From IMG/VR virus record IMGVR_UViG_2531839454_000015: DNA of 16,661 nt; one strand, given 5' to 3'. Below the pieces are notes generated by a model, which was not told where the DNA came from, ran no database searches, and saw only the letters and a program-made list of their open reading frames with translations. The DNA is from a virus (lineage: Duplodnaviria; Heunggongvirae; Uroviricota; Caudoviricetes). A program made the position numbers and the translations under genes. Below, in pieces: positions 15,197 to 16,661 of this stretch (the first letter of the stretch is position 1; the number at the start of each line of letters is the position of its first letter).

Positions 15197-16373
15197 ATGG
15201 CAGAGCAAACCTCGCGTCTCGCAATAATTATTGATAGCACTGGAGCGAAAAATAATGCTGACAATCTGACCTCCTCATTAGTCAAAATGACGCAGGCTGG
15301 GGAAACTGCTGCAAATAGCGCAGGGAAAGTGACTAAGGCAACAGAAGATGAGAAGAACGCGCTCGCAAAATTAAAAGCAGCTATTGATCCAGTTGGTGCC
15401 GCAATTGATACTGTCGGTCGACGCTATTCTGAATTAAAGAAATTTTTCGATAAAGGGCTTATTGATAAAGAAGAATATGAATTTCTTGTCCGTAAACTTA
15501 ATGAAACCACAGAGGAATTGAGCGGGGTTGCGCAAGCGCAGAGAGAAGTCGAGAAGGCCGGAAAACTTGCTGCCGCCCAGCAGGAAGCGCAGGCTCAGGC
15601 CTTTCAAAGAATGCTGGACAAGATCGACCCTCTGGCTGCGGCGCTAAGAAATCTTGAACAACAGCATGATGAACTTAATGCTGCGTTTGCATCCGGGAAA
15701 ATAAATGGTTCTCAGTTTGAGAATTATAGCCGAAAAATACAGGAAACACGGCGAGAGCTTACCGGAGAGGCTCAGGCAGAGCGAGAAGCAGCAAAAGCGC
15801 ATGATGAACAGGTTGTTGCTTTGCAACGTCTGATTGCTCAACTTGATCCTGTCGGAACTGCTTTTAATCGTCTGGTAGAACAACAGAAACAGCTCAATGA
15901 AGCAAAAGCTAAGGGGATGCTTTCTCCTGAAATGTATGAGGAGCTTTCTGGAAAACTTCGTGCTATGCGGAGTGAGCTTGAGGTTACTCAATCACAATTA
16001 AGCAAAACCGGAATGTCGGCAAAACAAACGGCTTTTGCTATGCGCATGTTGCCTGCACAAATGACGGATATTGTTGTTGGGTTGTCCACTGGTCAGTCGC
16101 CATTTATGGTGTTAATGCAGCAGGGCGGCCAGCTAAAAGATATGTTCGGTGGGATTGGCCCGGCGATCAAAGGGGTAGGTTCTTATGTGCTGGGATTAAT
16201 TAATCCTTTTACCCTGGCCGCAGCAGCCGTTGGGGTCTTAGGACTGGCTTACTATAAAGGCTCTCAGGAGCAGGACGAATTTAATAAATCTCTTATTCTT
16301 ACCGGAAATCAGTTGGGGACAACCAGCGGGCAATTGGGCGATTTAGCTCAACGTGCCGGGAATGCGGCTGATT
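15197..16373 (+). pseudogene. Tail tape measure protein (lambda H-like), interrupted by IS insertion after about codon 392
   Basis: N-terminal coiled-coil repeats and the conserved [35 protein letters not shown] motif are like lambda gpH. The native reading frame ends at the IS terminus at 16374; the track ORF then continues into IS-derived sequence to 16528. Confidence 0.7.
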
Positions 16374-16661
16374 TGAAGTGGTCAACAAAAACTGGCCACC
16401 GAGTTAGAGTTTTTTCCAGTATCGATTTTCCGATTCGTTTGGTGGTAACCCACCATTATATTCGTGCGGTCTTAGTGCGCTGTAATATCCAACGATATAG
16501 TCCGTTATTGCGTGAGCTGCATCGCTGAAGCTTACATAGCCCGTCGCCGGCACCCATTCGTTCTTCAGACTCCTGAAGAAGCGCTCCATTGGGCTGTTAT
16601 CCCAGCAGTTTCCACGCCGACTCATACTCTGCCTGATCCGGTATCTCCACAGTAACTGCCG
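16374..16661 (-). mobile_element. IS3-family insertion sequence, partial (continues beyond window end)
   Basis: The terminal sequence TGAAGTGGTCAACAAAAACTGGCCACCGAG begins with the TG dinucleotide typical of IS3-family ends and resembles IS911-type ends as I recall them. A minus-strand transposase C-terminus lies immediately inside. Confidence 0.75.
16404..16661 (-). CDS. IS3-family transposase OrfB, C-terminal part (5' end beyond window)
   Basis: Minus-strand frame is open from the window edge: ...[38 protein letters not shown]...[22 protein letters not shown]. The GNCxDN...ERFFxSLK signature surrounds the catalytic E of DDE transposases of the IS3 family. Confidence 0.8.

Follow-up and report, generated by a model that had tools for sequence, protein, structure and literature searches.

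The DNA analyzed here (16661 bp, hereafter the window) is the whole of contig AQCY01000072.1 in the draft assembly GCA_000354335.2 of E. coli BCE034_MS-14, and is the late region of a Rac-type lambdoid prophage. Its genes run from lysis through trkG, a ParB-like gene and a glucosyltransferase-like gene to the terminase, portal and head genes, followed by the tail terminator, the tail tube, ydaY and the tape-measure protein (TMP) gene, the last of which is broken by an insertion sequence (IS) (Table 1). The contig stops at 16661, 288 bp inside the IS, ISEc52, leaving 23% of the element in the window; such a stop is typical of short-read assemblies, as ISEc52 is multicopy. At its other end the contig starts within rrrD, a phage lysozyme gene common to lambdoid prophages. 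Since both ends lie inside repeats, they are repeat-induced assembly breaks.

Table 1. Features of the tape-measure gene, the inserted element and the neighboring chaperone gene, in window coordinates
Feature	Position	Strand	Remarks
ydaY, tail-assembly-chaperone gene, between tail tube and TMP genes	14287..14723	+	Alignment to the undeleted 149-aa allele
TMP gene, 5' part	15197..16373	+	Codons 1-392 and base 1 of codon 393, of 1077
Predicted 3-bp target site ATT	16371..16373	.	From the 3-bp duplications at other ISEc52 copies
Uninterrupted target-site sequence, TMP gene			GCTGATTCGACAACTGG and GCTGATTCGACAAC
Read-through tail of the truncated TMP	16373..16528	+	51 IS-encoded codons (...RELHR), stop 16526-16528
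Terminal 288 bp of ISEc52, end adjoining the 3' end of orfB	16374..16661	-	Transposase opposite to the TMP gene
Terminal inverted repeat TGAAGTGGTCAACAAAAACTGGCCACC	16374..16400	.	Imperfect pairing with the other terminus, TGTTGTGGTTTACTGAATTTGGCCACC, of a complete copy
DDE transposase (OrfB / OrfAB C-terminus)	16404..16661	-	Last 85 codons and stop: residues 16661..16407 (...RYWKKL), stop 16406..16404

Three Rac markers, trkG, ynaK and ydaY, are found in the window itself. The near-identical prophage of E. coli ATCC 43896 occupies the Rac site, integrated at ttcA and carrying the Rac marker genes in the order ttcA-intR-xisR-recET-racC-kilR-sieB ... stfR-tfaR-pinR-uspF. Over its whole length the window also shares 99.3% identity with the phage record vB_EcoS-683R6.

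The K+ transporter cargo gene trkG (958-2433), which marks the element as Rac-type, sits between the lysis and packaging modules, and in the ATCC 43896 prophage transporter and regulator genes (BCCT, MFS, LysR, GGCT) also form a block between the replication and nin/Q regions. The ParB-like ORF (2571-3362, 263 aa) matches PHROG 620 over its full length. For ATCC 43896, whose sequence here is identical, RefSeq gives a partial ynaK pseudogene of 258 nt, a label that is probably an annotation artefact carried over from the K-12 remnant.

The tape-measure gene breaks off within codon 393

The product of the ORF starting at ATG 15197 matches Pfam TMP_2 over residues 267-391 (E = 6.5e-54). Its 1177 nt (15197-16373) show zero differences from the intact 3234-nt (1077-aa) TMP gene of ATCC 43896 (L001), and by direct comparison the first mismatch between the two falls at 16374. 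Across this site the intact gene reads ...GCGGCTGATT|CGACAACTGG (...GCTGATT|CGACAACTGG) and the window reads ...GCGGCTGATT|TGAAGTGGTCAAC (...GCTGATT|TGAAGTGGTCAAC). A BLAST match to the TMP gene extends three bases past 16373 because of chance matches. The insertion separates the first base of codon 393 from the second. The original prediction, that a clean tape-measure frame gives way to an IS terminus after 16373, at about codon 392, thus holds: divergence from the intact gene starts at 16374, and the codon number is exact, since codon 393 begins at 16373.

The intact 1077-aa homologue carries TMP_2 (267-471), TMP_4 (671-748) and Tape_meas_lam_C (858-932), as well as a TIGR01541 match at 705-1040, and these domains, together with the position of the gene between the chaperone and minor tail genes, place it among the tape-measure proteins. 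Truncation splits TMP_2 (profile position 129 of 208), with loss of TMP_4 and Tape_meas_lam_C. The window thus holds an interrupted frame that follows TMP sequence for 392 of 1077 codons and then reads on into the IS, giving a fusion product of 443 aa (392 TMP residues and 51 IS-encoded residues). This protein is in GenBank as EMV26003.1, where it was deposited as 'prophage tail length tape measure family protein'; it is the product of an IS-truncated pseudogene.

The break is specific to this copy of the gene. When a 1465-base query was compared by megablast with 5426 complete E. coli genomes, at least 80% of it was covered in at least 706 genomes, which match the TMP part and end at the break, with 99.8-99.9% identity among the matches listed. 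The junction itself was absent from all 5426, the best coverage being 80% and ending at the break.

A strong intrinsic-terminator-like hairpin (GAAACCCAC-TTCG-GTGGGTTTT, then a T run) lies at 15151-15184, in the 165-bp gap directly before the TMP start codon and within what is expected to be the late operon; the relatives, identical in sequence there, share it. A scan of 14200-16661 for promoter-like sites gave a single match, on the minus strand at 15038-15009 and far from the junction. This count is lower than expected from shuffled sequences, with no sign of a hybrid promoter at the IS end.

The inserted sequence is the end of ISEc52

From 16374 to 16661 the window is identical at 288/288 bases (E = 3e-148) to many E. 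coli copies labelled 'IS3-like element ISEc52 family transposase'. An unbroken match of this length, beginning right at the terminal TG of the IS, is not explicable by chance. These bases are the first 288 of a complete 1250-bp copy (L002 2001-3250, i.e. 2001-2288), and related copies of ISEc52 occur in 4002 of the 5426 complete genomes. The inserted sequence is therefore the end of a named element, ISEc52 of the IS3 family, as this 288/288 identity places it. We take ISEc52 to be IS911-like.

The termini of the complete copy are TGAAGTGGTCAAC...GGCCACC and TGTTGTGGTTTAC...GGCCACC, both of which start with TG. ISEc52 thus has TG-initial, imperfect inverted repeats, one terminus being present in the window and the other read from the reference copy. 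The 85 transposase residues in the window match Pfam rve_3 (positions 2-67 of 67, E = 2e-12) and NCBIfam transpos_IS3 (positions 293-368 of 369, E = 1.3e-24), the fragment falling below the whole-protein cut-off of the latter. The full OrfAB reconstructed from the identical reference copy scores 380.6 bits on transpos_IS3 against a cut-off of 160, and together the window fragment and the reference OrfAB identify an IS3-type DDE transposase. In the reference copy (L002), beyond the extent of the window, orfA and orfB are in a -1 arrangement with an A AAA AAG-type frameshift context, and RefSeq tags ISEc52 transposases as 'frameshifted' or 'programmed frameshift'. Complete copies of ISEc52 at two other loci lie between 3-bp target duplications, CTT (L002) and CTG (ATCC 43896).

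Both an IS3-family element and the C-terminus of a DDE transposase on the minus strand had been proposed from the letters of the window; the nucleotide identity to ISEc52 and the matches to rve_3 and transpos_IS3 bear these out, and the comparison with annotated elements supplies the name of the element, at 288/288.

A frameshift in the upstream chaperone gene

The tail module carries another lesion just upstream. In the window, ydaY has a 13-bp frameshifting deletion at 14371-14374 that leaves a 41-aa product from ATG 14287. The undeleted 149-aa allele matches PHROG 313 'tail assembly chaperone' (E = 4.9e-46) and is present in 719 of the 5426 complete genomes; the deleted allele is found in two of them, ATCC 43896 and 025542-1. 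The 13-bp deletion is thus common to BCE034_MS-14, ATCC 43896 and 025542-1. By parsimony, the frameshift is probably older than the three different IS insertions that these strains carry. As a lesion that the common ancestor of this small lineage probably carried, preceding the IS insertions, it suggests that the prophage was probably unable to build tails beforehand; ISEc52 would then have entered the TMP gene of an already tail-defective prophage, as a second lesion. The original prediction that the IS disrupts the tail module thus stands, but the IS is not the sole lesion, and the ydaY frameshift is probably the earlier of the two.

Just before the ydaY stop codon we also observed a slippery A AAA AAG at 14711 (14711-14717), with the -1 frame open to 15031. 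The downstream -1 part (14798-15031) is annotated merely as a separate 77-aa hypothetical ORF.

The insertion is young and private to one strain

The nearest relative of the window is the ATCC 43896 prophage. Across 1-16373, some 16.4 kb, the two differ by one SNP, at position 758, and the TMP gene of ATCC 43896 is intact. Both of the closest relatives, ATCC 43896 and 025542-1, retain the whole TMP gene and tail module. The 443-aa fusion protein is on record from one contig only; among the 15 listed of the 198 members of its cluster, no other truncated TMP product that was read has the IS-derived tail. We conclude that the TMP insertion is confined to BCE034_MS-14 and recent, indeed very young: neither its observed nor its predicted junction was recovered from the 5426 complete genomes, the fusion comes from a single contig, and a relative one SNP away is uninterrupted. 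The original suggestion of a possibly recent, polymorphic insertion fits these observations. A literature search on the strain name BCE034_MS-14 gave nothing relevant, and ISEc52 appeared there only as a routinely annotated IS.

The relatives have IS insertions of their own. ATCC 43896 carries an ISEc52 after the position equivalent to 4159 of the window, in the same orientation and with a CTG duplication (L011 5660-6909); it splits the glucosyltransferase-like ORF, whose counterpart in the window (3337-4287) is intact. In 025542-1, a second close relative from Bangladesh, the same prophage has its tail tube gene split by IS2 (L013 25264-27562).

Proposed course of events and alternatives

We consider it probable that the locus as a whole is best explained by transposition of ISEc52 into the TMP gene of the full-length Rac-type prophage in BCE034_MS-14. 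Under this model, the 1250-bp IS3-family element, with its orfA/orfB and -1 frameshift, would have entered the gene in the opposite orientation. Insertion within codon 393 would most likely have duplicated the 3-bp ATT, and the other 685 TMP codons would resume just past the IS. This simple insertion is the reading that we favor for the far side, beyond the contig end. To search for it, the predicted second junction was built as ...AAACCACAACA-ATT-CGACAACTGG, also written as ...AAACCACAACA-ATT-CGACAACTGGTGC and AAACCACAACAATTCGACAACTGGTGC; among the 5426 complete E. coli genomes, no record covers 80% of it. A homology search with TMP residues 393-1077 returned C-terminal fragments merged into large 90% clusters, and exact look-up of predicted fragment ORFs did not find the predicted 702-aa C-terminal TMP ORF on record. 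Exact C-terminal TMP fragments of 672, 659 and 584 aa are on record, solely from other samples' contigs, most of which end within the TMP gene or have a frameshift there. None of the C-terminal fragments found by exact look-up came from GCA_000354335.2, a result that depends on the guessed start codon of the gene caller and on perfect identity.

The same observations could be read as the edge of a larger rearrangement. If an IS-mediated deletion or inversion had taken place, the 3' two-thirds of TMP would be missing or relocated, and the distal tail genes might be as well. The contig does stop inside the IS, the look-up gave no C-terminal TMP fragment from the same assembly, and several IS copies are active in the lineage, the hits differing from one sister strain to the next. 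Short-read contigs normally end in multicopy IS, however, the failed look-up is weak for the reasons just given, and the whole TMP gene and tail module are kept in both closest relatives, so that we regard a deletion or inversion as unlikely. An artificial junction, or one present in a minority of the culture, would leave the TMP gene essentially intact in the strain. The assembly is a short-read draft, its junction lies 288 bp from the contig end and no other assembly contains it. Random chimeras, however, do not look like this: the switch coincides with the canonical terminal TG of the IS, and 288/288 identity follows. We hold a chimeric or minority junction to be very improbable. An assembly chimera was accordingly rejected as the main reading, the switch falling exactly at the terminal base of the IS. 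The same IS has moreover been mobile in the same prophage of a sister strain, which argues against a chimeric or minority junction.

Another question is whether the insertion was neutral. Selection could have favored it if it silenced costly or lethal late genes, or if an N-terminal TMP fragment were useful, and an IS does lie in the late region of each of the three sister strains. Yet the hits are in unrelated genes (the glucosyltransferase-like ORF, the tail tube and TMP) and are of different IS types, they follow a shared chaperone frameshift, as expected under relaxed selection, and the 51-residue tail is an arbitrary antisense read-through of the IS. We find selection scarcely credible here. 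Besides being strain-specific, the ISEc52 insertion is probably neutral, and by this account it would be a further neutral hit in a decaying prophage, not the disabling event.

Consequences for tail assembly and prophage decay

In lambda gpH, in-frame internal deletions shorten tails, and the C-terminal part is required in the tail initiator complex. By analogy, the interrupted gene would yield a product of at most 443 aa, without half of TMP_2 and without TMP_4 and Tape_meas_lam_C, that could not nucleate a tail, and no tailed particles would be expected. Because the C-terminal TMP domains are lost, a block to tail initiation, with no tail at all, would be the likely outcome rather than short tails. 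The original prediction that any truncated product would be non-functional thus probably stands on the gpH analogy, but the reason offered for it, that tape-measure length sets tail length, is not pertinent. For annotation, the Rac-type prophage of BCE034_MS-14 would be scored as tail-defective on two counts, TMP and ydaY.

Decay of Rac through IS elements is well known. We suggest, tentatively and as a possibility that we hold slightly less probable than not, that the three sister strains capture this decay as it proceeds, the chaperone frameshift coming first and independent IS hits following, within a divergence of roughly 1 SNP per 16 kb. Should this be true, IS hits arrive faster than point mutations in a disabled prophage, and the sister strains offer a small, clean example of IS outpacing point mutation in its erosion. 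What we describe is otherwise a known IS that interrupts a known gene, in a prophage whose type is also known; such prophage erosion is common and well understood, and its relevance beyond annotation is small.

Comparison with known systems

The visible 288 bases of the element are without any difference from annotated copies of ISEc52. The disrupted gene is of the lambda gpH type: its intact homologue has TMP_2, TMP_4 and Tape_meas_lam_C and is followed by homologues of M, L, K, I and J. Unlike gpH, that homologue is 1077 aa and thus longer, and the copy in the window is truncated at residue 392. The slippery heptamer of ydaY and the open -1 frame behind it reproduce the G/GT arrangement of the lambda gpG/gpGT chaperones, whereas the chaperone gene here is frameshifted. 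The prophage as a whole resembles the Rac prophage of E. coli K-12 and its full-length relatives in its chromosomal site (ttcA-intR ... pinR-uspF) and in its marker genes (recET, racC, kilR, sieB, trkG, ynaK, ydaY, stfR, tfaR, pinR). K-12 Rac presumably has a TMP remnant and a lom gene interrupted by IS. In contrast to the K-12 element, the present copy retains a complete head and tail late region and carries other lesions.
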